64,000 bases of DNA, from positions 3,520,001 through 3,584,000 of the forward strand of contig CAVYRF010000002.1 of assembly GCA_963770895.1 (NCBI GenBank), written 5' to 3'. The notes below the pieces were generated by a model that worked only from the letters and a program-made list of their open reading frames with translations, did no database searches and was not told where the DNA came from. This document shows, in pieces, positions 1 to 49,031 of this stretch (within the stretch, counting starts at the first letter, position 1; the number at the start of each line of letters is the position of its first letter). The stretch is from an uncultured Acidobacteriota bacterium. Its GTDB lineage: Bacteria > Acidobacteriota > Thermoanaerobaculia > Multivoradales > UBA5704. Made by a program: the position numbers and the translations under genes.

Positions 1-1957
1 GCGCCCGCTCGACGATCTGGATGAAGGCGTCTTCGAGCGACAGGCGCCCCTGGCGCGCGGCGAGGACGCGGATGCCCGCCGCGTTGAGCTTGGCGGTCAG
101 GTCGCGCAGGGCCTGGTCGGGTTGCTCGTCGGTGAAGACGTGCAGGCGATCGCCGAAGACCGACACCCGCCAGGGCTCGATCTCGGTGCGCAGCAGGTCG
201 GCGGCGCGCTGCGCCGGGTCGGCCACCAACTCCAGGAGGTGGCCGGGCTGCTGGCTCTTGATCCCGGTCGGGGTCCCTTCGGCGACCAGCTCGCCGGCGA
301 CCATCAGGCCGAGCCGGTTGCACTGCTCGGCTTCCTCCAGGTAGTGGGTGGTGACCAGGATGGCGGTGCCGGTGTCGGCCAGCCGGTTGATCAGCGTCCA
401 GAAGGAGCGGCGGGCCAGCGGATCGACTCCCGAGGTGGGCTCGTCCAGGAACAGCACGCGCGGCTCGTGCATGATGGCGGCGCCGAAGGCGACGCGCTGC
501 TTCCAGCCGGTGGGGAGGCTGCCGACCAGCTGGTTTTCCTTGCCGGTGAGGCCGGCGAAGGCGACCACCCAGCGGATCTTTTCGGCGCGCTCGGCGGGCG
601 GCACGCCGTAGACGCCGGCGAAGAACTCCAGGTTGCTGGCCAGCGGCAGGTCGTCGTACAGCGAGAACTTCTGCGACATGTAGCCCACCCGCTGGCGCAC
701 CTCGCGCGAGCGCACGTCGCCGCTTTCGCTCGCCAGCTGCACCTTGCCGCTGGTCGGATCGAGCAGGCCGCACAGCATGCGGATCATCGTCGTCTTGCCG
801 GCGCCGTTGGCGCCGAGCAGGCCGTAGACCTCGCCGTAGCTCACCTGCAGGCTCACCTGGTCGACCGCGGTGAAGGCGCCGAACTGCTTGGTCAGGCGGT
901 CGCCGCCGATCGCCACCTGCCCCTTGCCGGCGGCGTGATCGTGGCGGCCGGGGAAGGGCACCCGCGGCACCTCGTAGCCCAGGCTGCGCAGTCGCGCCAC
1001 CAGGACGTTTTCGAGCATCGGCTGGTCGCGTTGCAGCTCGATGCCGTCACCCAACGCCTGGCGGACGGCGTGCTCCGCCTGGTCCGGCTGGTGGACCAGC
1101 AGGTCCAGGCGGTCGCCGAAGCGCTGGATGTCATCGATCGGCTGGTCGGGGCCGCAGATGGGGGCCAGGGCGCGCTCGGCGGCGCCGAGGTCGGCGGCGC
1201 GCAGCTCCAGGCGGGTGGCGCCCAGGCTGGCGCGCAGCTGGGCGGGGGTGCCGACCTGCTGGATGACGCCCTGGTGCAGGAACGCCACCCGATGGCAGCG
1301 CTCGGCTTCGTCCAGGTAGGGCGTGGCGACCAGGATGGTCAGGCCGTCGGCGGCCAGGTGCACGAGCGCGTCCCACAGCTCGCGGCGCGACACCGGGTCG
1401 ACGCCGGTCGTGGGCTCGTCGAGCAGCAGCACGCGCGGTTGCGGCACCAGCGCCGCGACCAGGGCCAGCTTCTGCTTCATGCCGCCGCTCAGCTTGCCGG
1501 CCAGGCGGTCGGTGAAGCGGTCCATGTCGAACATGCGCAGGTAGCGCAGGCTGCGCTCGGCGATCTGGTGCGGCGGGATGAGGCGCAGATCGCCGATGTA
1601 GCGGATGTTTTCGGCGACGCTCAGGTCGAGGTAGAGGCTGAAGCTCTGCGTCAGGTAGCCGGTCTGCGCCCGCATCTCGCGCGCCGGGCGGCCGAACACG
1701 CGGGCGCTGCCCGCGGTCGCTTCCATGACGCCGGCGAGGACCTGAAAGGTGCTGGTCTTGCCGGCGCCGTCGGCGCCGATGAGGCCGAAGATTTCGCCCT
1801 CTTCGACGGTGAAATCGATGCCGCGCACGGCCTTGACCGCGCCGTACTCCTTGCTGAGCGACTGGACCTGAATGGCGCCGCGCGGCTGGCGGGCCGGCGC
1901 TGCCGGCGGCTCCGCCACCGTCGCGGCCGTCGCCGTGGGGGCGGCGGCAGGGCTCAC
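1..1957 (-). CDS. ABC transporter ATP-binding protein with two ATPase domains (YbhF-like); runs off the left edge
   Basis: Not in the ORF track (no stop in window). Read on the minus strand: GTG at 1957 overlapping the HlyD TGA (GTGA), Walker A GLIGADGAGKT with LSGGMKQKL and LLLDEPT, second Walker A GLLGANGAGKT with LPTGWKQRV and LFLDEPTSG. Confidence 0.9.
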   Translation of the reverse strand, partial: MSPAAAPTATAATVAEPPAAPARQPRGAIQVQSLSKEYGAVKAVRGIDFTVEEGEIFGLIGADGAGKTSTFQVLAGVMEATAGSARVFGRPAREMRAQTGYLTQSFSLYLDLSVAENIRYIGDLRLIPPHQIAERSLRYLRMFDMDRFTDRLAGKLSGGMKQKLALVAALVPQPRVLLLDEPTTGVDPVSRRELWDALVHLAADGLTILVATPYLDEAERCHRVAFLHQGVIQQVGTPAQLRASLGATRLELRAADLGAAERALAPICGPDQPIDDIQRFGDRLDLLVHQPDQAEHAVRQALGDGIELQRDQPMLENVLVARLRSLGYEVPRVPFPGRHDHAAGKGQVAIGGDRLTKQFGAFTAVDQVSLQVSYGEVYGLLGANGAGKTTMIRMLCGLLDPTSGKVQLASESGDVRSREVRQRVGYMSQKFSLYDDLPLASNLEFFAGVYGVPPAERAEKIRWVVAFAGLTGKENQLVGSLPTGWKQRVAFGAAIMHEPRVLFLDEPTSGVDPLARRSFWTLINRLADTGTAILVTTHYLEEAEQCNRLGLMVAGELVAEGTPTGIKSQQPGHLLELVADPAQRAADLLRTEIEPWRVSVFGDRLHVFTDEQPDQALRDLTAKLNAAGIRVLAARQGRLSLEDAFIQIVERA

Positions 1958-3333
1958 GGCGCGACCCGCTTGGACGGCCAGGCGTCGCGGGTCAGGATCT
2001 CGCCGTCGGCCGGCATGCCCGGCTTGGCGTAGCCGGCAGCCGCCTGCGGCCCGAGCTGCAGCTTGACGCCGACCACCTGCTTGACGCGGTCTTCGCGGAA
2101 GTAGGTGTTTTCGGGGGTGAACGACGCCGCGGGGTCGATGCGCGACACGAAGGCGTCGACCGGCTGCCGGGGATTGGAGTCCAGGTAGAGCCGCGCCGCC
2201 TGGCCCACCCGCACGGCGCCGATCTGGCCTTCGGGGACGAAGCCGCGCAGATAGACCTTGTGGAGGTCGAGCAGGGTGACCACCGGCGTCCCGGCGGTGA
2301 TCACTTCGCCGGGTTCGACGGTGCGGGTGCTGATGGTGCCGGCAAACGGCGCCGTCACCACCAGGTCGCGGCGGTTGGCCTGCGCTTCGGCGAGCTGCGC
2401 CTGGGCCTGGCCGATCTGCGCCGCGGCGCTGGCCGCCTGCGCCTGCTGCTGCACGATCTGGGCGCGCACGGCGTCGACGCGGGCGACGTGGATGTCGGGA
2501 TTGTCCAGGTTGGCCTGGGCGGTGGCCAGGGCGCCGCGCGCCGCTTCGGCGCGCCGCTTGGCGGCGGCGGTCGCCGCCGCCTGCTGGCCGGCGGTGGCCA
2601 CGGCCTGCTTGCCCTGGCGCTCGGACACGGCGCCGGTCGCGGCCAGCTTGGTATAGGCGTCCTGGTCGAACAGGGCCAGCTGCAGCGCCGCCTCCTGCTG
2701 CGCCGTATCGGCTTCGGCGGCGGCCAGGTCGGCGGTCGCCTGGCGCACGCGTCCGGCGGCGTCTGTGGTGGCCTGCCGGGTCTGGATCTGCTCCTGGCGC
2801 AGCTGGTCCTGCAGGATGGTGATCTGCTCGAGCGCCGCGCGGCTCTGCGCCTGGGCCTGGGCCAGCGCGGCGCGGGCCTGGTCTTCGCGCGCCCGCACCT
2901 GGTCGTCGGCGAGCACCGCCAGCACGGCGCCGGCCGCCACCACGTCGCCCTCGCGCACCCGCACCTGCAGCACGCGGCCGCCGGTGTTGGGCGCCACCGC
3001 CGAGTCGTCGCCCTCGATGCGGCCGCTGACCGTGACGATGTTGTCCGGTACGTGCGGTCCGGCAAAGAACACGCGCCACGCCACGATGCCGGCCAGAACG
3101 ACCGCCGCCGCCAGCAGGATCCACTTGATCCGCGAGCCGGCCGCCGGCCTGGCCGGCGGCGCGGCGGGTTCGCCGGGGGGTGCGGCGGGATCTGCCGGCG
3201 GTGCGGCGGCGGGCCTGCCCGGCGCGGCCGTCTGCGCCGGCGGCGCGGCTGCCGCGCCGTCCTCTGGCGAAGCGGATTGCGGGTCCCGACGTTCCGTCTG
3301 GACGCGGGCGTCGGCGGCTGGCGATTGCGTCAT
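1954..3333 (-). CDS. HlyD-family efflux periplasmic adaptor (YbhG-like)
   Basis: ATG at 3333 (MTQSPAAD) overlaps the TetR stop; N-terminal TM (KWILLAAAVVLAGIVAW), VSGRIEG..V.VREGD.V..G lipoyl motif, coiled coil, ASFTPEN...R, KPGMPADG. Confidence 0.9.
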   Translation of the reverse strand: MTQSPAADARVQTERRDPQSASPEDGAAAAPPAQTAAPGRPAAAPPADPAAPPGEPAAPPARPAAGSRIKWILLAAAVVLAGIVAWRVFFAGPHVPDNIVTVSGRIEGDDSAVAPNTGGRVLQVRVREGDVVAAGAVLAVLADDQVRAREDQARAALAQAQAQSRAALEQITILQDQLRQEQIQTRQATTDAAGRVRQATADLAAAEADTAQQEAALQLALFDQDAYTKLAATGAVSERQGKQAVATAGQQAAATAAAKRRAEAARGALATAQANLDNPDIHVARVDAVRAQIVQQQAQAASAAAQIGQAQAQLAEAQANRRDLVVTAPFAGTISTRTVEPGEVITAGTPVVTLLDLHKVYLRGFVPEGQIGAVRVGQAARLYLDSNPRQPVDAFVSRIDPAASFTPENTYFREDRVKQVVGVKLQLGPQAAAGYAKPGMPADGEILTRDAWPSKRVAP

Positions 3334-4067
3334 GGTCGGGTCCTCGGTGCGCGGGTGGCGGCGTCGTGCCGCTGCCGGGCGGCGGCGTCGCGGCGGTGTC
3401 CGGCGCCGGCCTCCCGCAGGTAGGCGAGCGAAAAGTCGGCGATGTGGTCGGCGATCGGTCCCACCCTGGCGGGCGTCAACTGGTCCTGCGGCCACAGCTG
3501 CGCCAGCAGCGGCGAGCCCAGCACGTAGAACAGGATCTGCCCCACGATGCTGTAGGCGCACAGGTGCGTCTGGGGATCGTCGGCAGGCAGGTCCAGGATC
3601 TTGCCGATCAGCTCCAGCATGCGCGCGAACAGCGGCCGGCTCACGGTTTCGGTGATGTGCGCCAGCGCCGGCGTGGGGTGGGCGAACTCATGCGCCATGA
3701 TGCCCAGCTGCCAGTCCGCCAGGCCGCGCCGCGCCGCGCCTTCGAGCCGGGCGCGGATCACGGCGCGCAGCATCTCTTCGGGCGGCGCGTCGCTGTCGAA
3801 AGCGTCGCGCATCGCGTCGATGCGGGACGCCTTGACCGATTCCTGCAGCACCGCCGTGTACAGGCCCAACTTGTCGCCGAAGTGATAGTTGATCGCCGCC
3901 ACGTTGGCGCCCGCCCGCCGGCAGATCTCCCGCACCGTCGCCGCCTGGAAGCCGCGCTCCGCGAACACCCGGCCCGCCGCCTCGATCAGCTTGTCGCGCG
4001 TCGCGTCGCTCCCCGCCGTCCCCCTGGCCGAGTCCGTGCCCGCCCTGCTGGATGCCGCGCGCGCCAT
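3330..4067 (-). CDS. TetR-family regulator with DUF1956/CecR(YbiH)-like C-terminus
   Basis: TRDKLIEAAGRVFAERGFQAATVREICRRAGANVAAINYHFGDK HTH; C-terminal SIVGQILFY...HIADFSL; heads the TetR-HlyD-ABC operon. Confidence 0.88.
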   Translation of the reverse strand: MARAASSRAGTDSARGTAGSDATRDKLIEAAGRVFAERGFQAATVREICRRAGANVAAINYHFGDKLGLYTAVLQESVKASRIDAMRDAFDSDAPPEEMLRAVIRARLEGAARRGLADWQLGIMAHEFAHPTPALAHITETVSRPLFARMLELIGKILDLPADDPQTHLCAYSIVGQILFYVLGSPLLAQLWPQDQLTPARVGPIADHIADFSLAYLREAGAGHRRDAAARQRHDAATRAPRTRP

Positions 4068-4077
4068 GGCAAACAGA

Positions 4078-4107
4078 AGTTTAAAGCGCGTGTTTGACTT
4101 GCGTCAA
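4078..4107 (-). promoter_or_regulatory. Putative sigma70 promoter of the tetR operon with an overlapping inverted repeat (candidate operator)
   Basis: Minus strand TTGACG (4107-4102), 18 nt, TAAACT (4083-4078), 10 nt before the tetR ATG; perfect inverted repeat TTGAC-N4-GTCAA at 4094-4107 covers the -35. Confidence 0.5.
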
Positions 4108-4790
4108 GAGACGGCGTCGGCGGCCGCCATGAACTGAAAGATGAATTCGAACAGCTCCAGATGGTTCTGGGCGGCCTGGGCGTCGTCGCCCCACACGGTC
4201 AGGCCGTGGTCGCGGATCAGGAATCCGGGCAGGCGCGGCGGCGCGGCGCGGAAGCTCTCTTCCATCTGGGCCGCGATGTCCGGCACGTGGGTATGGTTGG
4301 GGAAGTGCGCGACCGCCACGGCCGGGCGCTCTTCCCAGACGCCCAGACCCTTGAGCATCTCGATTGGCGGCAGGCGGACGTGCGCCGCGGAGCCGGCCCG
4401 GTACGACACCACGTTGGCGGCGACGGTGTGCACGTGATAGCAGGCGGCAGCCTGGGGGAAGAGGCGATAGACGACCTGGTGCAGCGCCGCCTCCGCCGAC
4501 GGCCGGTCCTGGTCGCGGCCGCGCTCCAGCAGGTCGCCGTCCGGCCCCATGCGCACGAAGTCGCGCCGGCCCAGGGCGCCCTTGCCCTTGCCGCTGGCGG
4601 TGATCCAGAAGGAGCGGTCGGGCAGCCGGAGTGACAGGTTGCCGGCGGTACCCATCATCCAGCCGCGGCCGTACAGGCGGCGCGCCGTGGCCGCCAGCGC
4701 GCGGCGCGGGTCTTGCTGCCGCGGCGCGGCGCCGGGCGCGTCCTGCCGGGTTGGGGAGTGCGGTGCGGCGTCCTCGGGCGGCGAGCTCAA
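4104..4790 (-). CDS. mtnB: Methylthioribulose-1-phosphate dehydratase (class II aldolase fold)
   Basis: GWMMGTAGNLS, ITASG..KG, PSAEA.LH, YHVHT, EMLKGL, GFLIRDHGLTVWG motifs; likely TTG start at 4790 with AGGAG upstream. Confidence 0.88.
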   Translation of the reverse strand: MSSPPEDAAPHSPTRQDAPGAAPRQQDPRRALAATARRLYGRGWMMGTAGNLSLRLPDRSFWITASGKGKGALGRRDFVRMGPDGDLLERGRDQDRPSAEAALHQVVYRLFPQAAACYHVHTVAANVVSYRAGSAAHVRLPPIEMLKGLGVWEERPAVAVAHFPNHTHVPDIAAQMEESFRAAPPRLPGFLIRDHGLTVWGDDAQAAQNHLELFEFIFQFMAAADAVS

Positions 4791-4945
4791 GCGGGCTCCT
4801 TGGGGAGGCGGGTGGAAGGTGGCGGGCGCGGGGACAAGGGCGCGGCCGTCACAGTAACAGTGGCGGAGTGCTGTCCACAAGTGATCAAATCGGTACACAA
4901 GAGGAGTGAGGCGGGACAGCTGCGCCTCAATAAGGAGACCATGCC

Positions 4946-5515
4946 ATGGCCATCGTGACCTACCGCGAATCGGGGCGGGTGCTCGAAGATGCAGCGGCGA
5001 TCGGCGACGCCCTGGCGCCGTTGGGGATCTGGTATCGCCGCTTCGAGGGCTCGGATCAGCTTGCCGACGACGCCACCGATCAGCAGATCCTGGACGCGTA
5101 TCGCGAACCGATCGAACAGCTCATGGCCGAAGGCGGCTACGTCACCGCCGACGTGATCAATATCAAGCCCGAGGTGCCCGGCCTGGAAGGCATGCTCAAC
5201 CGCTTCAACAAAGAGCACTACCACGACGAAGACGAAGTGCGTTTCATCGTCCACGGCCGCGGCCTGTTTCACATCCACCCGCAGAGCGAGCCGCGCGAGG
5301 TGTTCAGCATCGAAGTGCTCAAGGGCGACATGATCCGCGTGCCGCGCGGCACCCATCATTGGTTCGACCTGTGCGCCGATCGCACCATCCGCGCCATCCG
5401 CCTGTTTCAGGACCAGTCGGGCTGGACGCCGCACTACACCCAAAGCGGCACCGACGCGCGCCACCAGCCGCTCTGCTTCGGGCCGCGCTACCTGCCGCAC
5501 GCTCCGGCGCTCTAG
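4946..5515 (+). CDS. mtnD: Acireductone dioxygenase (ARD, cupin)
   Basis: GYVTADVI, F.KEHYHDEDEVRF, GDMIRVP.GTHHWF, AIRLFQD..GW; AAGGAG RBS upstream. Confidence 0.93.
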   Translation: MAIVTYRESGRVLEDAAAIGDALAPLGIWYRRFEGSDQLADDATDQQILDAYREPIEQLMAEGGYVTADVINIKPEVPGLEGMLNRFNKEHYHDEDEVRFIVHGRGLFHIHPQSEPREVFSIEVLKGDMIRVPRGTHHWFDLCADRTIRAIRLFQDQSGWTPHYTQSGTDARHQPLCFGPRYLPHAPAL

Positions 5516-5528
5516 GAAAGCCTTGCCG

Positions 5529-6329
5529 ATGGCTCTACCGGTTGGATTGCGCGGCGTGCTGACCGATATCGAAGGCACGACGACGGCGATCTCGTTCGTC
5601 TACCAGACGCTCTTTCCGTACGCGGCGGCGCGGCTGGATGCCGTGTGCGCGCGGGCCGCGGCGGCGAGCGGCGCCGGCGGCGACAGCGCCGGCGACGTCG
5701 CACAGGTTGCCGCCGCGGTGGACCTGCTGCGCGGCGAATACGCCGCCGAGGCGGCTGCTGCCGCCGCGCCGCTGCCCGACTTTGGCGACGGTGCGCCCTA
5801 CGCCCACTACCTGATGGCTCAGGACCGCAAATCGACCGGCCTCAAGGCGCTCCAGGGCTTGATCTGGAAGCACGGCTACGACAGCGGCCGGCTGGTCAGC
5901 CAGGTCTTTGACGACGTGCCGCCGGCGCTCGCCGCCTGGCGGGCGGCGGGGCTGCGCCTGCGGGTGTTCTCTTCGGGCAGCCGGCAGGCGCAGCAGCAGC
6001 TGTTTGCGCGCACCGAGCACGGCGACCTGACGGCGCTCTTCGACGGCTTCCACGACACCACGACCGGGCCGAAGCGCGAGGTGGATGCCTACCGCAAGAT
6101 CGCGGCGGCCTTCGCGCTGCCGCCGGCGACGCTGCTGTTTCTGTCCGACGTGGCCGCGGAGCTGGACGCGGCGGCGGCGGCCGGGTACGCCACCGCGCTG
6201 GTGGTGCGGCCCGGCAACCCCGCGCAACCCGCGGGGCCTCACCCCGTGGTGCGCAGCTTTGACCAGCTGCTGCCGGATGCGGCGCCGGCCGCGGCGGCGG
6301 CGCTTGCTGGAAGGGATGGTGCGACATGA
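5529..6329 (+). CDS. mtnC: Enolase-phosphatase E1 / acireductone synthase (HAD)
   Basis: LTDIEGTTTAISFV..TLFPYA, DRKSTGLKALQGLIW..GY, FSSGS..AQ, GPKRE, LFLSD...ELDAA..AG. Confidence 0.93.
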   Translation: MALPVGLRGVLTDIEGTTTAISFVYQTLFPYAAARLDAVCARAAAASGAGGDSAGDVAQVAAAVDLLRGEYAAEAAAAAAPLPDFGDGAPYAHYLMAQDRKSTGLKALQGLIWKHGYDSGRLVSQVFDDVPPALAAWRAAGLRLRVFSSGSRQAQQQLFARTEHGDLTALFDGFHDTTTGPKREVDAYRKIAAAFALPPATLLFLSDVAAELDAAAAAGYATALVVRPGNPAQPAGPHPVVRSFDQLLPDAAPAAAAALAGRDGAT

Positions 6330-7408
6330 AAACGATCAAGGTGCTGGTGTGGGATCTGGATCACACGCTGTGGGACGGCGTGCTGCTGGAAGGCGACGCG
6401 GTGCGCCTGCGTCCCGCCGTCGAAGACCTGCTGCGCGAGCTGGACGCGCGCGGCATCCTGCTGTCGATCGCCAGCAAGAACGATCACGATGCGGCGATGG
6501 CCCGCCTGCGCGAGCTGGGCGTCGCCGATTATTTCATCTATCCGCAGATCAGCTGGAACGCCAAGTCGCAGGCGATCGCGAACATCGCCACCTCGATCAA
6601 CGTCGGCCGCGACGCCATCGCCTTTGTCGACGACGACCCGTTCGAACGTGACGAGGTGCGCCATGCGCATCCCGAGGTGACGGTGCTCGATGCGCAGGAG
6701 GTCGCCGAGCTTGCCGGGCGCCCTGAATTCATGCCGCGCTTCATCACCGACGAATCGGCGCTGCGGCGCCGCATGTATCAGGCCGATATCGAGCGCAACC
6801 GCGCCGAAGCGGATTTTCAAGGGCCGCAGGAAGAGTTCCTTGCCGGCCTGGGGATGAAGTTCACGATCCATCCGGCGCAGGAATCGGACCTGCGGCGTGC
6901 CGAAGAGCTGACGGTGCGCACCAACCAGCTGAACAGCTCGGGGCAGACCTATTCGTACGAGGAGCTGGACGCGTTCCGCCGCTCGCCGCACCACCTGCTG
7001 CTGGTGGCCGGGCTGACCGACCTGTACGGCACCTATGGCAAGATCGGCCTGGCGCTGATCGAAACGCAGCCGGACGTGTGGACGCTCAAGCTGCTCCTGA
7101 TGTCGTGCCGCGTCATCTCGCGCGGCGTCGGCAGCATCCTGGTCAGCCACATCCTGCAGCTTGCGAAGGCGGCCGGAGCGCGGTTTCAGGCGGAATTCAA
7201 ATCGACGTCGCGCAACCGGATGATGCTTGTGACCTACAAGTTTTCCGGTTTCCGCGAGGTGGCCAAAAACGGCGAGCTGCTGGTGTTCGAGCACCCCCTG
7301 ACCGGCGTGCAGCCGTTCCCCGCCTATGTCGATGTGGATCTTTCGGCGGGCGGCGAGGACGCGGCGCCCGCACCGGCAGATCAGCCGGCGATTCTGGCAT
7401 CACGATGA
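6326..7408 (+). CDS. fkbH: FkbH-like HAD-IIIC glyceryl transferase/phosphatase
   Basis: KVLVWDLDHTLWDG, SIASKN, FVDDDPFERDEV, RTNQLN, LLMSCRV (conserved Cys); ATG overlaps the mtnC stop (ATGA). Confidence 0.92.
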   Translation: MKTIKVLVWDLDHTLWDGVLLEGDAVRLRPAVEDLLRELDARGILLSIASKNDHDAAMARLRELGVADYFIYPQISWNAKSQAIANIATSINVGRDAIAFVDDDPFERDEVRHAHPEVTVLDAQEVAELAGRPEFMPRFITDESALRRRMYQADIERNRAEADFQGPQEEFLAGLGMKFTIHPAQESDLRRAEELTVRTNQLNSSGQTYSYEELDAFRRSPHHLLLVAGLTDLYGTYGKIGLALIETQPDVWTLKLLLMSCRVISRGVGSILVSHILQLAKAAGARFQAEFKSTSRNRMMLVTYKFSGFREVAKNGELLVFEHPLTGVQPFPAYVDVDLSAGGEDAAPAPADQPAILASR

Positions 7409-7421
7409 GGGAGGAGACACA

Positions 7422-8360
7422 TTGCAGACGATAGGGGTCATCGGCGCCGGGGTCATGGGAACCGGCGTCGCACAGGACGTTGCACAACACGGACGACAGG
7501 TGATCCTGATCGACCTGGACGACGCCCGGCTCGAACGGGCAAAACGCGAGATCCGCGCCAACCTGCGCATGCAGGGCTTCTTCCGCCCGCCGGCCGCGGC
7601 CGCGGCTGCGACCGCGGCGACCATGGCGGCGGGGGCAGCCGCGGCACCGGCGGCGGCCAAGCCGGCCGCGGGTCCGCTCGGCGGCGGCAGCCCCGCGGTC
7701 CTGGCGCGCATCCAGTTCACCACCGACTATGCTCAATTGGCGGCGGCCGACTTCGTGGTCGAGAACGTCGTCGAAAAGTGGCCGGTCAAACAGGGCGTCT
7801 ACAAGCTCCTGGACGCGCACTGCCCGCCCGAATGTGTGTTTGCCGCCAACACCTCGGCGATCTCGATCACCAAGATCGGCGGCGCCACCGGCCGCCCCGA
7901 CCGCGTGCTCGGCATGCATTTCATGAACCCGGTGCCGCTCAAGCCGATGGTCGAGGTGATCCGCGGCTTTCATACCTCCGAAGCGACGCTGGCGCGGGCG
8001 CACCAATTCCTGGCGCTGCTCGGCAAGGAGGGCATCGTGGTCAACGACATGCCCGGCTTTGTCACCAACCGCGTGCTGATGCTCACCATCAACGAAGCGA
8101 TCTTCCTGGTGCAGGACCAGGTGGCGGCGCACGACGACGTCGATCGCATTTTCAAGGGCTGCTTCGGCCATAAGATGGGGCCGCTCGAAACCGGCGACCT
8201 GATCGGCCTGGACACCATCCTGTTTTCGCTGGAAGTGCTGTACGAAAGCTACAACGACGACAAATACCGGCCCTGCCCGCTGTTGCGCAAGATGGTCGAC
8301 GCCGGTCTGCACGGCCGCAAGAGCGGTCGCGGCTTCTACACCTACGATACGGCGGACTAG
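7422..8360 (+). CDS. 3-hydroxyacyl-CoA/ACP dehydrogenase (FkbK/ZmaG-like)
   Basis: GVIGAGVMGTGVA Rossmann motif, NTSAISIT, GMHFMNP, PGFVTNRVL, FGHKMGPLETGDLIGLDT; TTG start after GGAGGAG. Confidence 0.9.
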   Translation: MQTIGVIGAGVMGTGVAQDVAQHGRQVILIDLDDARLERAKREIRANLRMQGFFRPPAAAAAATAATMAAGAAAAPAAAKPAAGPLGGGSPAVLARIQFTTDYAQLAAADFVVENVVEKWPVKQGVYKLLDAHCPPECVFAANTSAISITKIGGATGRPDRVLGMHFMNPVPLKPMVEVIRGFHTSEATLARAHQFLALLGKEGIVVNDMPGFVTNRVLMLTINEAIFLVQDQVAAHDDVDRIFKGCFGHKMGPLETGDLIGLDTILFSLEVLYESYNDDKYRPCPLLRKMVDAGLHGRKSGRGFYTYDTAD

Positions 8361-8366
8361 AGAGCC

Positions 8367-8636
8367 ATGAACGACGTTCAAACCCACATCAAGACCTTTC
8401 TGTCGCGCTTTTTCCGCAATCACGACCTGCAGCCCGACGAAGACATCTTCGCCCTGGGCTTCGTCAACTCGCTGCTCGCCATGCAGCTGGTCAACTTCGT
8501 CGAAAAGGAGTTCGGCGTCACCATCGAAGACGAAGACCTCGACCTGGACAACTTCCGCACCCTGCACGCCATCGACGCCCTGGTCGAGCGCAAGCGCGCC
8601 GGCGGCGCCCCCGCCCCGGCCCCGGCCGCGGGTTAG
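8367..8636 (+). CDS. Acyl carrier protein (FkbJ/ZmaD-like)
   Basis: DIFALGFVNSLLAMQLV.FVEKEF carrier motif (Ser in GFVNSL), DLDLDNFRT. Confidence 0.9.
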   Translation: MNDVQTHIKTFLSRFFRNHDLQPDEDIFALGFVNSLLAMQLVNFVEKEFGVTIEDEDLDLDNFRTLHAIDALVERKRAGGAPAPAPAAG

Positions 8637-8653
8637 CAGGGACGGCGCCGCCG

Positions 8654-9829
8654 ATGAGCAGCGAAGCGCCCAGGGACGGGGACGGCGATCCCGGCATGCG
8701 CCTGGAACTGTCGGCGGCGCAGCGCGATGCGCGCGAGCGCTGCCGCCAGTTTGTCGCCGAATGGGTGGCGCCGCACGCGGGCGAATGGGACCGGGCGGGC
8801 CGCATGCCGCCGCAGGTGATCGACCAGGTGCGGCAGCGCGGCTACCTGGGCTCCCACCTGGCGCCGCAGCTGGGCGGCGGCGGCCTCGACCCCATCGCCT
8901 ACGGCCTGATCACCGAACAGATCGGGCGCGGCTGCTCGTCGCTGCGCTCGCTGCTCACCGTGCACGACATGGTGAGCGAAGCGATCCGCCGGTGGGGGAG
9001 CCCGTACCTCAAGCGCGAGGTGGTGCCGCGCCTGGCGCGCGCTGAGCTGCTGGCAGCGCTGGCGCTGTCGGAACCCGACGTCGGCAGCGACGCCGCCTCC
9101 GTCCAGACCGTCGCAGAGCGCGATGGCGACGCCTACGTGCTGCACGGGCGCAAGCGGTGGATCACCTTCGGCATGGTCGCCGACCTGTTTCTGGTCTTCG
9201 CCCGCTGCGGCGGTCAGGTCGCCGCCTTCGCCGTGCCGGCCGACGCCGCGGGTCTGACCCGCCAGCCGATCACGACCGTCGTCGGCACCCGCGCCTCCCA
9301 CCTGGCCGAGCTCACCTTCGACGGTTGCCGGGTGGCGCCCGAGCACCTGGTCGGGCGCGTCGGCTTCGGCTTTACCCACGTCGCCCTGACCGCCCTCGAC
9401 CACGGCCGCTACAGCGTCGCCTGGGGCGCCGTGGGCATCGCCCAGGCCTGCCTGGACGCCTGCCTGGCCTACACCGCGGAGCGCCAGCAGTTCGGCAAAC
9501 CGATCGCCGGCCACCAGCTGGTGCAGCAGAAGCTCACCCGCATGATCGTCGACGTCCGCGCCGCCCGCCTGCTCTGCTGCCGCGCCGGCTACCAGCGCTC
9601 GATCGGCGCCCCCGACGCCGCGGGCGAAACCCTGATCGCCAAGTACCACGCCTCGCGCGCCGCCACCAGCGCCGCCAACGATGCGGTGCAGCTGCACGGC
9701 GCCAACGGCCTTTCCCAGGACTACCCGGTCGAGCGCTACCTGCGCGACGCCAAGGTCACCGAGATCATCGAAGGCAGCACCCAGATCCAGGAGGTCGCCA
9801 TCGCCGCCTATCCGCCGGGCGACCTGTGA
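8654..9829 (+). CDS. Acyl-CoA/ACP dehydrogenase (FkbI/ZmaE-like)
   Basis: GCSSLRSLLTVHDMV, ALSEPDVGSDA, RQQFGKPI, QLHGANG, RDAKVTEIIEGSTQIQ; alternative start at 8696. Confidence 0.9.
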   Translation: MSSEAPRDGDGDPGMRLELSAAQRDARERCRQFVAEWVAPHAGEWDRAGRMPPQVIDQVRQRGYLGSHLAPQLGGGGLDPIAYGLITEQIGRGCSSLRSLLTVHDMVSEAIRRWGSPYLKREVVPRLARAELLAALALSEPDVGSDAASVQTVAERDGDAYVLHGRKRWITFGMVADLFLVFARCGGQVAAFAVPADAAGLTRQPITTVVGTRASHLAELTFDGCRVAPEHLVGRVGFGFTHVALTALDHGRYSVAWGAVGIAQACLDACLAYTAERQQFGKPIAGHQLVQQKLTRMIVDVRAARLLCCRAGYQRSIGAPDAAGETLIAKYHASRAATSAANDAVQLHGANGLSQDYPVERYLRDAKVTEIIEGSTQIQEVAIAAYPPGDL

Positions 9830-9924
9830 CCGTCCGCGGCCCCGTGGCGCAGATGATGCACCCAACGCAGCCATGCCGCCCAACCGTGCGGCGCGCTGCA
9901 AATTCTTGCCTTGGGAGAGCGTGC

Positions 9925-11064
9925 ATGCCAGCCAGAGAGCCCGTCGAACGCCACAATCCCCCGTCCGCCGGCCGGCCCGCGCCGCGGTCCATCCCGGCTG
10001 CCGCCGCCTGGCGCCGCTGCGCCCGGCTGACCCTGGGCGCCGTCGTCCTGCTGGGCGCCGCGGCGACCGTCCCGGCGGCGCGAGCCGCCGGCGCCGCCGC
10101 GGCACCGCCGGCGGACCTGGCCGCCGATCTGACCGCCATGGAAGATGCCGACCGCGCCTTTGCGCGCCTGTCGCGCCAGCAGGGGTTGAAGGCGGCCTTC
10201 CTGGCCTACATGGCCGACGATGCCGTGCTCTTCCGCCCCGGCCCGGTGCCAGGTCCCGCCTACGTCGGCGCCCGGCCCTCGCCCGCCATCGATCTCGTCT
10301 GGGCGCCGGTGCACGCCGTCGTCGCCAAGAGCGGCGACCTGGGCTACACCACCGGCCCCTACCAGGTGCGTGACCTCGACGCCGCCCACGCCGTCGAAGA
10401 CCAGGGCTGGTACGTCACCATCTGGCGCAAGCAGCCCGACGGCAGCTGGAAACTCATCGTCGACCAGGGCGTCTCCACCCCGCCGCCCACCGGCATCGCC
10501 GCCACGCTGATCGCCGCCGCCGCCGCCGGCACCGCCGGGACCGCCAGCGGCGCGGCCGCGGCAGCCCCGCCAGCCGCCGGCAGCACTGCCACTCCGCCGG
10601 CCGCCGGCACCGCCGGCGCCGCCGGGATGGCAGCCGGCTCGGCCCCGCAGGACGCCGCGCAAGGCCTGGTGATGCGGGCGGACCGCGACTTTGCCGGCGA
10701 CGCCAACGTCCACGGCCCGCGCGCCGCCTACATGACCAGCCTGGCGCCCGGCGCCCGCCTCTACCGCCAGGACGCCGCCCCCGTCGAAGGCCGCGACGCG
10801 ATCGGCAAAGCCCTTTCCGGCGGCCACCAGCCCAACCCCGGCGGCCAGGCCACCGCCGCCGGCGTTTCCGCCGCCGGCGACCTGGGCTACACCTACGGCT
10901 CAACCGCCGTCACCGGCCCCGCCGCCCTCTCCAAGAGCGCCACCGCCGCCGCCACCACCAGCATGTACCTGCGCCTCTGGCAGCGCCAGGGCAGCGGCAC
11001 CTACACCATCATCTTGGACCTGATGAAGCCCCTGCCGCCACCGGCGCCGGAGGTTCACCACTAG
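9925..11064 (+). CDS. Secreted protein with two NTF2/SnoaL-like (DUF4440-type) domains
   Basis: Signal-like hydrophobic stretch; two copies of ADR.FA...AF/AY...SGDLGYT.G...Y..IW.KQ.DGSWK separated by an Ala/Pro/Gly linker; start uncertain. Confidence 0.7.
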   Translation: MPAREPVERHNPPSAGRPAPRSIPAAAAWRRCARLTLGAVVLLGAAATVPAARAAGAAAAPPADLAADLTAMEDADRAFARLSRQQGLKAAFLAYMADDAVLFRPGPVPGPAYVGARPSPAIDLVWAPVHAVVAKSGDLGYTTGPYQVRDLDAAHAVEDQGWYVTIWRKQPDGSWKLIVDQGVSTPPPTGIAATLIAAAAAGTAGTASGAAAAAPPAAGSTATPPAAGTAGAAGMAAGSAPQDAAQGLVMRADRDFAGDANVHGPRAAYMTSLAPGARLYRQDAAPVEGRDAIGKALSGGHQPNPGGQATAAGVSAAGDLGYTYGSTAVTGPAALSKSATAAATTSMYLRLWQRQGSGTYTIILDLMKPLPPPAPEVHH

Positions 11065-11077
11065 GCCCAGGGGGGGG

Positions 11078-12961
11078 CTAGTTGGTGGTGAGGGGCAGGG
11101 GGAGGTCGGCGGTGGAGGAGAGGTTGAGCTGGCCGCGGCCTTCGGCTTTGGAGCGGTAGAGGGCTCGGTCGGCGGCGCGGAGGAGCTCTCCCTGGTTGTC
11201 GCCGCTTTCGGGATAGAAGCTGATGCCCAGGGAGGCGGTGACTTTGAGGGTGTCGCCCTCGTGGTCGACCGGCTGGGCGATGAGGCGCAGCATGGATTCG
11301 CCGATCTGGATGGCTTCGGTGACTTCGAGGTCGAAGAGCAGCAGGGCGAATTCGTCGCCGCCCAGGCGGGCGAGGGTGTCTTCCTGGCGGAAGCTCTTGG
11401 CCAGGCGGGAGGCGATGTCGCGCAGCAGGTGGTCGCCGGCGTCGTGGCCGAAGGTGTCGTTGATCGGTTTGAAGCCGTCCAGGTCGAGGTAGAAGATGGC
11501 CAGGCGGCGGTCGTGGCGCTTGGCCTGGGCGAGGGCGAGCGACAGCCGGTCGTCGAACTGGGCGCGGTTGCCGATGCCGGTCAGGCGGTCCTGGAAGGCC
11601 TGGCGGGCCAGCTCTTCGCGCGCCTGGCGGCGGGCGGTGACGTCGAGGGCGTGGCCGAGAGCGTAGGGGGGCGCGGCCGGATCCTCGACCATCTGCTCGA
11701 TATAGAGCCAGGTGCGCTGCTCGCCGTCGCGGCGGATCACATCGATGGTGATCTCCTGACGCTTGCGAGCGCGCAGGGCGGCCAGGTGGTCGCCGAAGCG
11801 GGCGGCGCTTTCGGCGGTCATATAGTCGGTGAAGCGCCGGCCGCACATCTGCTGCCCTGCGTAGCCGAGCTCCTGGGCGGCGGCGGGGTTGACCGCGACC
11901 AGCACGCCGTGGGTGTCGTGGGCGCAGATATAGGACGGGCTGGCTTCGAACAGCTCGCGATAGCGCCGTTCGCTGCCGGCCAGGGCGTCGACGGCGCGCT
12001 GGCGGCCGGCGTTGGCGCGGGCGAGCGACGAGGTTGCCGCCCACACCACGAAGCCGAGCAGCAGGATGGTGCCGACCGCCATGAGGGCGATGCCCAGCTC
12101 GATGCGGAACCAACCCTGGCGCTGCCCCAGGTAACGCAGCCAACCCAGGAGCAGCGGGATGGCGGTGGTGGAGGCGATCAGCCGCCGGGCCAGGCGGCCG
12201 GCTTCGTCGTCGCTGCACAGCAGGGCGACCAGGCCGCGGTCGGGGCGCGCCATCAGCGCGCCCGCGGCGAGCATCGCCAGGCAGAAGGCGGTGTTCACCG
12301 CCATGCCGTTGTCGGCGTGCGGGACGAGCGTCGTGCCCAGGTAGGCGTAGGCCACCAGGACGGCAAAGCTGAACGCCGCGGTCAGGGACAGGGCGGCGGC
12401 GGACAGGGTGGTGCCCGCCGCGGGCCGCGCCGGGCGGCCGATCCTGGCCGGCGGGTCGAGCCATATCAGGCCAAGACCCAGCAGCAGCAGGCAGGTCGCG
12501 GTGCTGGCCATCATCCGGCTGTTGCCTGCGTTGATCTTCTGCGGGAAAAGCCACAGGTCGACGCCGCCGACGCCGGTCGCCGCGTGCAGCAGGCGCAGGG
12601 CGCCGATGGCCGCCGTGCCCGCGGCGGCGACGATCCCGGCCCGCCGCCGCGCCGCGCTGGCATCGACCGGATGGAGCGCCAGGAGCGCCAGCGCCGCGCA
12701 GACGATGGCGATCGCCGTCGCCGGGTTCATCGCCACCAGGTTGGGGTTGACGCGATACAGCCAGGGAATCGCGGTCACCCATCCCACCAGCGCCAGCGTC
12801 GCCACCGCCAGCGCGCAGGCGCTCGCAATGGCCGGAAAGGCGGTGGCAGACCGCCCGGTCGTGGTCTTTGCGGTGGGCATCGTATCGTTTAACGTTTCCA
12901 CCAAAGCGGCCTGGAGCCAATCAGCGGCGCGCCCGATTCTCTGTAGGAATCCGTCTGACAC
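11078..12961 (-). CDS. Membrane-bound PAS-GGDEF diguanylate cyclase
   Basis: Multiple TM segments, PAS (FEASPSYICAHD...VNPAA), DRLTGIGNR, DLDGFKPINDTFGHDAGD, RQED I-site, LARLGGDEF; true start may be 12880. Confidence 0.9.
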   Translation of the reverse strand: MSDGFLQRIGRAADWLQAALVETLNDTMPTAKTTTGRSATAFPAIASACALAVATLALVGWVTAIPWLYRVNPNLVAMNPATAIAIVCAALALLALHPVDASAARRRAGIVAAAGTAAIGALRLLHAATGVGGVDLWLFPQKINAGNSRMMASTATCLLLLGLGLIWLDPPARIGRPARPAAGTTLSAAALSLTAAFSFAVLVAYAYLGTTLVPHADNGMAVNTAFCLAMLAAGALMARPDRGLVALLCSDDEAGRLARRLIASTTAIPLLLGWLRYLGQRQGWFRIELGIALMAVGTILLLGFVVWAATSSLARANAGRQRAVDALAGSERRYRELFEASPSYICAHDTHGVLVAVNPAAAQELGYAGQQMCGRRFTDYMTAESAARFGDHLAALRARKRQEITIDVIRRDGEQRTWLYIEQMVEDPAAPPYALGHALDVTARRQAREELARQAFQDRLTGIGNRAQFDDRLSLALAQAKRHDRRLAIFYLDLDGFKPINDTFGHDAGDHLLRDIASRLAKSFRQEDTLARLGGDEFALLLFDLEVTEAIQIGESMLRLIAQPVDHEGDTLKVTASLGISFYPESGDNQGELLRAADRALYRSKAEGRGQLNLSSTADLPLPLTTN

Positions 12962-13154: not shown

Positions 13155-15141
13155 CTAACCGCCTCCCAGGATTCGTCCCAGCATGTCGAGCAGGTTACCC
13201 GCCAGCCGCCCCATCGCTGGGAACTGGCTTGCTGCCAGGCCGAGCAGCGGCACCAGGCCATAGATGAGGATCTTCGACCAGAAGGACCAGTTGAAAGTAA
13301 TAGCATCGGCGGTGGTCCTGCCGATGGTGCTCAGCGCCGGGTCGTGCTCCATCTGTACGAAGACCACGATCACCGTGGCGCACATCGCCATCAATAGGAG
13401 GCAGAGCACCAGCAGCGTCGGGCTCTTCGGCTCGAAGTGGCCACATCCCATAGTTGCCGCTCGCTGCAATCCATACGCTGGGCGCCGGTGTCGGCCTCCC
13501 CATCAGCTCGCCGGCGGCAAGGTACACCCCTTCCTGCAACTCGCTGGCGAACTGCCGCCGGACGGTGGGATCGGGCGTCGCCGGCGACGGTATGCCGCCA
13601 CCGCCCTCGGTCACCATGGGAAAGCTGGAGATGGCCAGCGTGCCGAACATGGCCTGGTTGTATTGCGGATGGACGTAGAGCAGGTCGGCTTCGAACACGA
13701 ACAGGCTGGCGCCGGGAATCCAGCGGCGCACCTGTTCGGCCAGGAACAGCTCGTCCTTGACGTCGGTCGCCACGATCCCGACGTACGAGAACCTCTCGCG
13801 GGACAGCTGGCGTCCGACATTGGCGATCGTCACGTCGTAGATGCGCGTGGCGAGCGGGCTCTGCTCGGCAATCACGTCCACCGGCGGCTGGCGGTCGGCA
13901 AGGCTCACGTCCAGCGCGGTCTTGGGTGCGCTCACCGCCCTTGCCGAGGTCCCTTCGCCGGCGGCCGCAGGCTGGCCGGCGGCGGTGGTCGCAGCCCAAG
14001 CGTTGCGCAGCCCATACAGCTCGGTCGGGAACCTCACCTTGGTGAGGCGGCGCAGGAGAGGAGCCGCCTGCGTCGAGCTCCACAGCGAATTGCCGTAGGT
14101 TGTGTCGTTTTCGACCAACAGCACCGCGCGGTCCAGGTTCCAGCCCATCTTGTCCTGGAGGAAGCGGAGGGCGGTTTCGATGAGCGTTTCTTCGTCCACG
14201 ATCGTGCGGCTGAAAAGCACCCGTGACGGGCCGGTGATGTCAGCGAGGGCCTGTTCAACTCTCGGCGCCGCAGCCGATCCCGACACCAGGCGGAAGCAGA
14301 CGTCGGGTGGCGCGTTGTCGATCGCCAGGCGCAGCGAATCCGCCGCGCCTGAGTAGGTCGGCCCCAGAACCGGCAGCTCCACGCGGTCGGTGCAGGCGGA
14401 TGCCGCTGCGGTGGTCGGATGGCCCAGGTCGAGGTCGGCACGGCAGGCGGCGGCGTGAAGGCCGGCGATGAAGGAGACGGCGCTGTGGAAAGCCCTCTTG
14501 TGGATACCCTGTTTCGGCGTCTCGCCGACCAGGAAGACCGCCAGCAGCGATCCCCTGCGGTCGTTTCCGGTGCGCCGGAAAAGCAGCATGCCCGCTGCAT
14601 CCTGGTACGCCTTTTCGTCCAGTGCTTTGGACTGAGTCCAGGGGAGCCAGTTGCGGTCGAGCTGGTAGCTGGCATCGGCAAGAGCGCTCTGCACCGCTCG
14701 CAGCTCCAGGTCGAAGTCCGCTGCCAGGCCGGATTCCACCGGATCGGCCACCAGGACCATCATGTATTCGAGGCGCAGTCGATGATCGCGAGCAGCCAGT
14801 GCAATGCTCTCCCAGGCTCCGCCAGGAGGTTCGCTGGGCTCTGGCGAGAGGTCCAGGCGGACCGGTTCGCCGCCAACGCTGCCATGCAGCTCGAGGACAT
14901 CGTGTGGCCGCGCCTTGGGCGGCGCAATTTCCAGCTGTTCGCGGTAGAGACGCGCGTAGTCGCGGTATGCGGATCCAGTCGTGCCGTCGTCCGCCGGCGC
15001 CGGCTCGGCGCTTGCGGCGCCCGCGTCAGGGGCCGCCGGATGAGGCGGCACCTGAACCACCGGCGCCGGGGCCAAGCCGCGGGCGAGGAGCAGCGCCACC
15101 GAGGCCGCGCCGATGAGAAAAGGCGTCTGCTTGAGGTCCAT
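13155..15141 (-). pseudogene. Large hypothetical membrane-protein gene, apparently frameshifted with an internal deletion near 13437
   Basis: The 15141 frame reads as a globular protein up to ...SGNYGMWPL and then becomes nonsense-like; a second frame (13155-13440) carries TM-rich FEPK...VQMEHDPALS...FNWSFW...YGLVPLLGLAASQFP that looks like a genuine C-terminus. Confidence 0.55.
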
Positions 15142-15427
15142 ACGGCTGGTGCCCCCCCTTTTCCGCTGCGCCGCTCACCGATCTGCCCTGGTTACCTGAG
15201 ACGGACAGCGCACCGCTTTTTTGCTGATCCCTTGAGACACGGCGGAGATACCCGTCGGGGGAGCCGCGCCGCGAGTGAACGAGCCCTGGGCTCCCAAGAG
15301 GCCGGCCGAGGCAGCTATCCTTCGACCCTGCGCCACCCCGGTACGCTGGTCAGGGCAGGGCGAATTTGTTAGAACTCGCGGCGCGCGGCAACGTCCTGTG
15401 GCCAGGCCGCCTGGAGGGAGATCCGAC

Positions 15428-16399
15428 ATGAAGGCGGCAATCGTGGTGGAGGCTGGGAGGACGCCGGTGTACGGCGAGTTTCCTGAACCGCAGGCAGGTC
15501 CGGGGGAGGAGCTGATCCAGGTCGCGGCGGCGGCGTTGACGCCGCTCACCAAGGGCCGCGCGTCGGGCTCGCACTACAGCTCGGCGGGGCAGTTTCCGGC
15601 GGTCGTCGGGGTGGATGGCGTGGGGCGCACGGCGGCGGGGCAGCGGGTCTATTTCGTGCTGCCGAAGCCGCCGCAGGGGGCCATGGCGGAGCGGGTTGCG
15701 ATCGGCAGGGAGCGGTGCGTGGTGCTGCCCGACGACGTGGATGACGTGACCGCGGCGGCGATCGCAAATCCCGGCATGTCGTCCTGGGCGGCGCTGACCG
15801 AGCGGGCGCACCTCAAGGCCGGCGAGACGGTGCTGGTCAACGGCGCGACCGGGACGTCAGGGCGCCTGGCGGTGCAGATCGCCAGGCACCTGGGCGCTGC
15901 CCGGGTGATCGCGACCGGCCGCGACGCGGCCACCCTGGAGGAGCTGCGGGGGCTGGGCGCCGACGTGACGATCTCGCTGGCGCTGGCGCCGGGCGACCTG
16001 GAGGCCGCCCTGTCCGCCCAATTCGCGGCGGGCGTCGACGTGGTGCTGGACTATCTTTGGGGCGTCAGCGCCCAGACCGCGATCGTCGCCGCGGCCAGGG
16101 CGGGCAAGGACGGCGTGCCCGTCCGTTTTGTGCAGATCGGCAGCTCGAGCGGCGCCGATGTGGTCCTGCCCGGCGCCGCCCTGCGCTCGTCGGCGCTGGT
16201 GCTGATGGGCAGCGGCATCGGCAGCGTCCCGCTTGCCGGCCTGGTGAACGCGATCCGCGGCGTCATGCAGGCCGCCGGCCCCGCCCGCCTGTCGGTCAAG
16301 ACCGAAACCGTGCCCCTGGCGCAGGTCGAGCAGGCCTGGCAGCGGGACAGCGGCAGGAACCGCATCGTGTTCGTGATCGATGCGCCCGCCAGGAGTTAG
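15428..16399 (+). CDS. MDR-superfamily (quinone-oxidoreductase-like) NAD(P)-dependent oxidoreductase
   Basis: MKAAIV, P.VVGVDGVG, AAAIANPGMSSW, VLVNGATGTSG, DVVLDYLWG; GGAG RBS. Confidence 0.88.
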   Translation: MKAAIVVEAGRTPVYGEFPEPQAGPGEELIQVAAAALTPLTKGRASGSHYSSAGQFPAVVGVDGVGRTAAGQRVYFVLPKPPQGAMAERVAIGRERCVVLPDDVDDVTAAAIANPGMSSWAALTERAHLKAGETVLVNGATGTSGRLAVQIARHLGAARVIATGRDAATLEELRGLGADVTISLALAPGDLEAALSAQFAAGVDVVLDYLWGVSAQTAIVAAARAGKDGVPVRFVQIGSSSGADVVLPGAALRSSALVLMGSGIGSVPLAGLVNAIRGVMQAAGPARLSVKTETVPLAQVEQAWQRDSGRNRIVFVIDAPARS

Positions 16400-48169: not shown

Positions 48170-48910
48170 CTATTGATTGGCGAACTGGAACTGCACGTAG
48201 TCCACCGTCGTGGCGCCGCTGCCGCTGCCGTTGGCGTCGTAGACCGCCACGATCCACTGGCCCGGGGCGGCGCCCGGCACCGGCACGACGACGTTGCCGC
48301 CCGGCGAGATCGTGTAGGTCGCGGGGCCTGGCAGGGGCTGCAGCGCGTCGATCAGCTTGGCGTTGGAACGGTTCAGCTGATCGAGGGGAAAGGGCGAGCC
48401 GACCAGCGCATAGCGGACGTTGCTGACGACGAGCGCGTTGGTGCCGATGGCGAAGTCGTTGGCAAACTCCAGGCCGAGACCGTTGGGTTCGGTTCCCGTT
48501 TCCTGGATGATGCTGCCGGGGAGCTGGTTGCCGGCGGCGTCCGTCCAATAGAGGTTGACGATGCCGGTGGGGTTTGCCGTGCACCAGCCGACGTGAACCA
48601 GCACGCCGGGGTTGATCGGCGAGTTGGCCTGGTTGAGGTTCTGCCAGTGCAGCAGGGTGTTGGCGCCTTGGAAGACGGCGCTGAAGTCGCTGAAGATGCC
48701 GGCCGAAGTGGCGGTGCCGATCGGGCCGGGAGCGAAACCGTTGAACAGGTGGGTGAGAAACTGGTTGCCGGTGATCACGAAGGCGATGTCGAAGGCGGGA
48801 ACCGTTCCCACGTTGGTGAAATCCTTGTTGATGCAGTAATCGGCGAAGGCGGCGGTGGATCCGGTGGTGAGGCAGAGCAGGGTGAGCGCGACCACGATGC
48901 TGCGTTTCAT
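48170..48910 (-). CDS. Hypothetical secreted beta-rich protein
   Basis: Sec signal MKRSIVVALTLLCLTTGSTAAFA; Asn/Gly/Thr/aromatic-rich mature region; GGGGGA RBS-like sequence. Confidence 0.8.
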   Translation of the reverse strand: MKRSIVVALTLLCLTTGSTAAFADYCINKDFTNVGTVPAFDIAFVITGNQFLTHLFNGFAPGPIGTATSAGIFSDFSAVFQGANTLLHWQNLNQANSPINPGVLVHVGWCTANPTGIVNLYWTDAAGNQLPGSIIQETGTEPNGLGLEFANDFAIGTNALVVSNVRYALVGSPFPLDQLNRSNAKLIDALQPLPGPATYTISPGGNVVVPVPGAAPGQWIVAVYDANGSGSGATTVDYVQFQFANQ

Positions 48911-49002
48911 GACATGTCCCCCATTGTGAGATACGACCGTTGCGTCATCGACCGGCCGCGGGTGGAAGCCGCCCGGTCCAGATCTACGGTTCAGCACAAT
49001 CG

Positions 49003-49031
49003 AGAATAGTAGTGACTTAGAGACATGTCAA
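49003..49031 (-). promoter_or_regulatory. Near-consensus sigma70 promoter for the 48170-48910 gene
   Basis: Minus strand TTGACA, 17 nt (tgtctctaagtcactac), TATTCT in an AT-rich patch. Confidence 0.7.

Follow-up and report, generated by a model that had tools for sequence, protein, structure and literature searches.

Why should genes of methionine salvage be joined, with no spacer at all, to genes that make a rare extender unit, bound to an acyl carrier protein (ACP), for antibiotic-type assembly lines? The question is raised by a 64-kb stretch of DNA from an uncultured soil member of the Acidobacteriota (G000:C2:3520001-3584000, G+C ~70%; hereafter, the window), in which mtnB, on the minus strand, diverges from a co-oriented run of mtnD, mtnC, fkbH and the genes for a 3-hydroxyacyl-CoA-dehydrogenase (3HCDH) homologue, a discrete ACP and an acyl-CoA-dehydrogenase (ACAD) homologue (4946-9829, plus strand). 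MtnB, MtnC and MtnD are expected to convert methylthioribulose-1-phosphate to the keto-acid precursor of methionine; on the cassette side, FkbH would take 1,3-bisphosphoglycerate and place its glyceryl unit on the ACP, for the two dehydrogenases to oxidise to hydroxymalonyl-ACP. We think it probable that the arrangement is a lineage-specific operon fusion, in which the two halves are co-transcribed and translationally coupled and each keeps to its usual job. What links them would then be a gene order passed down by descent, to which co-expression may add some advantage, and no shared pathway.

Gene identities were assigned from Pfam and NCBIfam profile matches on the window's open reading frames (ORFs; Table 1). 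The matches uphold the names that an initial annotation had given to these genes, the divergent orientation of mtnB, and the tight, co-oriented unit that it had described as mtnD-mtnC-fkbH-fkbK-ACP-fkbI, in which no gap exceeds 17 nt (mtnD-mtnC, 7-13; mtnC-fkbH, -4; fkbH-fkbK, 13; fkbK-ACP, 6; ACP-fkbI, 17). FkbH, the 3HCDH-type and ACAD-type proteins and the discrete ACP are all encoded in one operon, the content by which a hydroxymalonyl-ACP cassette is recognized, and fkbH is single-copy in the G000 genome. The ORF scan, which covers 27 real window ORFs (a 28th, 3180-4097 on the plus strand, is probably not a gene), showed no methyltransferase family, and no O-methyltransferase (OMT) gene of the FkbG type lies 3' of the cassette; the hydroxymalonyl and not the methoxy form is therefore expected. 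The start of mtnB is uncertain, as the alignment of relatives begins at about residue 60. AAGGAG stands 9 nt upstream of the mtnD ATG, and mtnC likely starts at ATG 5529, with TTG 5523 also allowed by the open frame. For fkbK, an ATG at 7326 was set aside in favour of TTG 7422, the likely start judging by its context: it falls 13 nt past the fkbH stop, is preceded by GGGAGGAG, and is directly followed by the Rossmann glycine motif.

The two halves meet in an ATGA overlap of the mtnC stop with the fkbH start (6326-6329), which had been noted initially and is confirmed in the sequence. Its TGA closes the mtnC frame, its ATG opens a frame beginning with the HAD motif region of FkbH, and 8-10 nt before the fkbH start, inside the mtnC tail, is a purine-rich stretch resembling a Shine-Dalgarno sequence. 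In protein alignments, this low-complexity tail adds 13-22 residues to MtnC in the window and in G005, a genome of the same genus, and is absent from the unlinked MtnC of G008, G009, G015, and G016. An identical ATGA overlap is found in all six linked loci (the window, G005, and four metagenome contigs), and CATGA is invariant in eight of eight aligned junctions (six linked and two of the scar type described below), despite a tail that differs in sequence and length. Because the identical junction recurs in five other assemblies, faulty assembly of G000 does not account for the join. Logan contigs of four DNA runs over 4000-10000 gave pieces of 150-730 nt, and no listed piece spans 6326.

Table 1. 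Coordinates of the fused operon, its junction, and the large synthetase gene downstream (window positions).
Feature	Position	Strand	Basis
mtnB, methylthioribulose-1-phosphate dehydratase	4104-4898	-	TIGR03328, 187 bits (cut-off 137); Aldolase_II
mtnD, acireductone dioxygenase (ARD)	4946-5515	+	PF03079, 100 bits (cut-off 27)
mtnC, enolase-phosphatase (acireductone synthase)	5529-6329	+	TIGR01691, 209.5 bits (cut-off 128)
Low-complexity C-terminal MtnC extension running into the fkbH start	6288-6326	+	Protein and junction alignments
ATGA overlap of mtnC stop with fkbH start	6326-6329	+	Sequence reading
fkbH, HAD-IIIC-type glyceryl-ACP synthase/phosphatase	6326-7408	+	TIGR01686, 275 bits (cut-off 147)
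fkbK-type 3-hydroxyacyl-CoA-dehydrogenase homologue	7422-8360	+	3HCDH_N, 3HCDH
Discrete acyl carrier protein, FkbJ type	8367-8636	+	PP-binding, 38 bits
fkbI-type acyl-CoA-dehydrogenase homologue	8654-9829	+	Acyl-CoA_dh_N, _M, _1 domains
Giant nonribosomal peptide synthetase (NRPS) open frame, 8540 codons (context, not shown to belong)	22474-48096	+	~8 C, 5 A, 10 T, TE

A scan of 3900-11200 for sigma-70 promoters and terminators returned two promoter-like sites, at 4631-4658 (plus strand, inside mtnB) and 4107-4078 (minus strand), together with four weak terminator-like sites, about the number expected from shuffles. It placed neither a promoter-like nor a convincing terminator-like site between 5515 and 6326, and no promoter-like site before fkbH, a negative that in Acidobacteriota is weak evidence from a scan of the sigma-70 type. 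The course of events that we propose begins in an ancestor within the genus, where an fkbH-first hydroxymalonyl-ACP cassette would have come to lie directly behind mtnC of the only mtnB/mtnD-mtnC unit. The mtnC frame would have lost its old end and come to run through the short low-complexity tail to the TGA that overlaps the fkbH ATG. The cassette would since have been transcribed with mtnD-mtnC, probably from the mtnD promoter, and the translation of FkbH would be coupled to the termination of MtnC.

Are the mtn genes at this locus the ordinary ones? In the G000 genome, mtnB and mtnC have one match each, and mtnD one match above the cut-off, all at this locus. A second, housekeeping mtnBCD set was looked for in the genome and not found; the copies at the locus are the sole ones, an outcome that the initial annotation had named beforehand among those speaking against its interpretation (co-regulation with an S-adenosylmethionine-consuming pathway, or an undescribed route from salvage intermediates to an ACP-bound unit). 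The genes mtnA and mtnP, rightly said to be missing from the window, were the two further pathway genes searched for, and both are encoded elsewhere on C2, at G000:C2:1624864 (TIGR00512, 428 bits) and, for the methylthioadenosine phosphorylase, at G000:C2:280338 (TIGR01694, 304 bits). In the alignment, the HAD motifs of MtnC are intact, and the window copy carries an insertion of 11 residues and, in the MtnC tree, has the longest branch. In that tree, whose backbone lacks resolution, the MtnC of the genus cluster together (support 85/98), with linked and free copies interspersed. The four unlinked neighbourhoods that were read hold the mtn genes without FkbH, as a divergent mtnB/mtnD-mtnC unit in G008, G009, and G016, and with mtnB on the same strand in G015. 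Single copies, intact motifs, free mtnB/mtnD-mtnC units and the genus-wide grouping of MtnC thus make the mtn copies at the fusion look vertically inherited. By their sequences, then, the mtn genes of the window are the ordinary housekeeping set and not a diverged paralogue.

The adjacency is rare but not unique to this genome; uniqueness had been named in the initial annotation as an outcome that would speak against its interpretation. Among the 92 genomes of the family, MtnC was found in 59, an FkbH orthologue (at least 57% identity) in 77, and both in 51; mtnC and fkbH are adjacent in two of these 51, G000 and G005. In the remaining 49, MtnC and FkbH are on separate contigs or at least 20 kb apart, the nearest pair, in G042, being 20 kb apart. 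In a class sample of 401 genomes, FkbH is present in 12 of 13 other family members versus 15 of 388 genomes outside the family; with 77 carriers among 92 family genomes, an FkbH cassette is nearly a hallmark of this family of uncultured Acidobacteriota. A search of 14 of the 15 outside-family FkbH genomes found no MtnC in any. Further afield, in 55 FkbH loci of other taxa from many phyla in the genome collection, 34 of them with the complete four-gene cassette, no mtn gene lies near FkbH (up to 10 kb of flank). Metagenomes yielded 75 FkbH loci, 13 of them of the FkbH-first type. Four of the 13 are linked, with mtnC directly upstream (L136, L137, L141, and L144), five are unlinked (L134, L135, L139, L140, and L157), two of these with a scar, and four begin at a contig edge. 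In the other 62 loci, mtnD-mtnC is nearby in L159 only.

The FkbH-first cassettes fall into a single clade (support 99/98), with linked, scar-bearing, and unlinked members mixed over a backbone that is again without resolution. As far as the sequences tell, the junction in the linked loci is one old event. Linked MtnC proteins share 62-64% identity with that of the window, and the RpoB proteins of G000 and G005 share ~77% (pairwise values from six genus genomes, G003 left out; the RpoB tree of the genus is itself unresolved). While the seven-gene block, mtnB included, stays whole, its flanks change: TetR/HlyD-type genes in the window, an ORF of unknown type and a C-A-T NRPS in G005, and, in L136, a penicillin-amidase gene whose end is separated from the mtnB stop by 11 nt.

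Each half occurs in lineages that have lost the other. The cassette and mtnA are retained in G001, G003, G004, and G007 (85-91% completeness), in which mtnB and mtnC were not found; tblastn (E up to 1) gave nothing convincing by way of mtn remnants upstream of fkbH. In these four genomes, the cassette is divergent from an NRPS gene whose product is 40-55% identical at its N-terminus to the window NRPS. In G003, fkbH (L047 10153-11167) appears in two overlapping tblastn pieces, which points to a frameshift in that assembly. Conversely, G008 keeps mtnBDC, its MtnC groups with the linked copies, and no FkbH was found in it (85% completeness); G009 has mtnBDC and a cassette in the usual K-ACP-I-H order at different places. 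The trace of a loss is preserved in L139, which is placed inside a clade of unlinked cassettes. Its positions 1-790 hold a chimeric open frame, in which a penicillin-amidase-like fragment is fused in frame to the last 20-odd mtnC codons, with the ATGA overlap at the fkbH start; to judge from this sequence, L139 is clearly a deletion scar. L134, with an intact penicillin amidase, then ~50 nt that include a short stretch common to L139, and then ATGA-fkbH, may possibly be another. The arrangement in G008 had suggested a simple insertion of the cassette between mtnC and an FG-GAP gene; this idea was dropped because FG-GAP genes adjoin fkbH in L135 and L143 too, and the family is too common to serve as an anchor.

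That mtnD-mtnC and the cassette are chance neighbours and are not co-transcribed, the cassette having its own promoter within the tail of mtnC and the overlap being without effect, seems to us quite unlikely. The tail is unconstrained sequence that could harbour a promoter, and unlinked relatives express the cassette from different upstream DNA; set against this are the zero spacer, the Shine-Dalgarno-like stretch within the tail, the lack of promoter-like or convincing terminator-like sites between 5515 and 6326 in the scan, and the overlap shared by all six linked loci. The same invariance, kept while the surrounding MtnC tail diverged in sequence and length, could instead mean that the fusion was selected for joint expression, for instance with a product pathway that consumes S-adenosylmethionine (SAM) and releases methylthioadenosine, or under a common nutrient signal. 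The wholeness of the seven-gene block between changing flanks would fit such selection, as would the position of the mtn block between assembly-line genes and the cassette in L136 and G005. Nevertheless, we regard selected co-regulation as unlikely: no methylthioadenosine-releasing enzyme was seen among the window ORFs scanned, no Rfam RNA, SAM riboswitches included, matched in 3000-12000 (E up to 1), the cassette outlived the loss of the mtn block in related lineages, and of the 51 family genomes with both sets, 49 hold them apart. Several observations do weigh against a fusion maintained by inheritance of gene order. The overlap and the block are kept in at least four species-level lineages, far apart and with differing flanks, a hint of selection for the linkage and not of inertia alone. 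In L159, a second, looser mtn co-location occurs in an unrelated cassette type: within positions 1-6100, a divergent mtnD-mtnC is separated from fkbK by ~1.2 kb that include a TonB_C gene, the order is K-ACP-I-H, and FkbH is 60% identical. It may have come about independently, as a second co-location, or by chance; a rough estimate puts the frequency of one such case in ~120 loci near that expected by chance. An ancestral fusion followed by loss would rest mainly on the L139 scar, with the backbones of both trees unresolved. Finally, no consumer of hydroxymalonyl-ACP was found, and the neighbouring NRPS is without a ketosynthase (KS) domain.

A biochemical link would be of a different order. 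In one form of it, MtnC or MtnD would act on an ACP-bound intermediate, or FkbH would load a salvage-derived sugar phosphate, to give an undescribed ACP-bound unit, which we hold to be very unlikely. A variant that draws on structural analogy starts from the expected FkbK product, 2-hydroxy-3-oxopropionyl-ACP, whose enol would be an aci-reductone that MtnD might cleave to oxalyl-ACP and formate; this, too, we consider highly improbable. In either form, the result would be an undescribed building block for the neighbouring KS-less NRPS. The conserved tight linkage and the analogy of the intermediates speak for such chemistry, and nothing else does; the literature searched neither describes nor excludes it. 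Against it, the mtn genes are sole copies that keep their motifs and group with the MtnC of the genus, and fkbI, which would be redundant under such a shunt, is kept in five of five linked loci that reach that far (the window, G005, L136, and, in part, L137 and L141). The undescribed route offered in the initial annotation thus finds no support, and neither does a metabolic link of the two pathways in general: the cassette does without mtn genes wherever else it was examined, 55 of 55 loci of other taxa included, the mtn unit stands without FkbH in four genomes, and the loss of each half with the other kept disfavours it further. Operon fusion, with each half at its usual job, remains the explanation that we favour.

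What the cassette is used for is a separate matter. In canonical cassettes, 1,3-bisphosphoglycerate is converted to glyceryl-ACP and then hydroxymalonyl-ACP, which an additional O-methyltransferase turns into methoxymalonyl-ACP, and in the bafilomycin cluster the genes run dehydrogenase-ACP-dehydrogenase-FkbH-methyltransferase (K-ACP-I-H-OMT; PMC3679948). In Gemmatimonadota loci, the cassette adjoins a KS-AT-KR-T module of NRPS-polyketide synthase (PKS) hybrids, which is its ordinary use. No KS was found in the 64-kb window, including the NRPS, nor any KS+AT module adjoining the cassette. The window NRPS has an N-terminal T domain, an approximate domain order of T-C-A-T-C-T-C-T-C-A-T-C-A-T-C-A-T-C-A-T-C-?-T-TE, and three C-T modules with no A domain. 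In same-genus genomes, the cassette is flanked by homologues of the N-terminus of this NRPS, and the FkbH-first order with an NRPS neighbour occurs in G001, G003, and G007. Across the family, the scanned parts of the cassette neighbourhoods hold NRPS, penicillin-amidase, P450, PALP, and glycosidase-like genes and no KS. The G000 genome as a whole has 33 KS matches, the nearest 100-110 kb from the window, and with KS-bearing frames at such a distance, a far-off PKS acting in trans is no less possible a user than the neighbouring NRPS.

The surroundings offer some further observations. About 25 of the 33 KS matches fall in open frames of 1300-10800 codons, G000 being very rich in assembly-line genes. 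Cassette neighbours vary by genus, with PALP-P450-GH1-like-GH43 in three g5 genomes and NRPS, penicillin amidase, MFS, and P450 in G015. In the window, the cassette is followed 3' by ~1.2 kb without a convincing frame, GGDEF, an ORF of no family, ADH_zinc_N (15275-16399), an M20 peptidase, FG-GAP, and then the NRPS. The first of these intervals, 9830-11077, lacks any frame with the usual G+C pattern by codon position and contains a 339-codon minus-strand ORF without a Pfam or NCBIfam match. Near the NRPS are two minus-strand ORFs, 13195-15141 (648 codons, no Pfam or NCBIfam match) and 48170-49027 (285 codons, no Pfam match).

If the ordinary reading of the fusion is true, the locus would be a clean natural case in which a secondary-metabolite operon has captured housekeeping genes, the two being coupled in translation, and a warning that tight operon packing alone proves no shared pathway; if the fusion reflects chemistry, it would define a new ACP-bound unit. 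The cassettes of this genus often adjoin NRPS genes in which no KS was found. Literature searches, supplements not covered, found no account of FkbH alongside methionine salvage, acireductone, or Acidobacteria, and none uniting hydroxymalonyl-ACP, FkbH, and a condensation domain.

The mtn half agrees with methionine salvage through mtnB, mtnC, and mtnD as known from Klebsiella and Bacillus: the proteins pass the family models, mtnA and mtnP are encoded elsewhere in the genome, and the HAD motifs are preserved. What sets the MtnC of the junction apart from an ordinary MtnC is its low-complexity tail of 13-22 residues, made, as we see it, by the fusion. In the salinosporamide route to chloroethylmalonyl-CoA, the analogy drawn in the initial annotation, a SAM-dependent chlorinase, a nucleoside phosphorylase, sugar dehydrogenases, and a crotonyl-CoA carboxylase/reductase lead to a CoA ester, and SAM-related sugar chemistry adjoins extender-unit genes in both systems. 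Here, however, the mtn genes are the housekeeping set, and the enzyme families of that route were not found: no SAM-dependent halogenase, other SAM-cleaving enzyme, or crotonyl-CoA carboxylase/reductase appeared among the window ORFs scanned with Pfam, the ADH_zinc_N protein not being examined further. The closest kin of the other half are the hydroxymalonyl- and methoxymalonyl-ACP cassettes, FkbGHIJK of FK520, ZmaN/D/G/E of zwittermicin, and BafAI-AV of bafilomycin, with which it shares the same four protein families in one operon. It differs from them in that fkbH comes first and not last, in having no OMT and no KS/AT module within 64 kb, and in being fused to mtnD-mtnC. We did not find the arrangement described in the literature searched; its halves are each of an ordinary, familiar kind, and their fusion is genuine and has been kept within a small clade.

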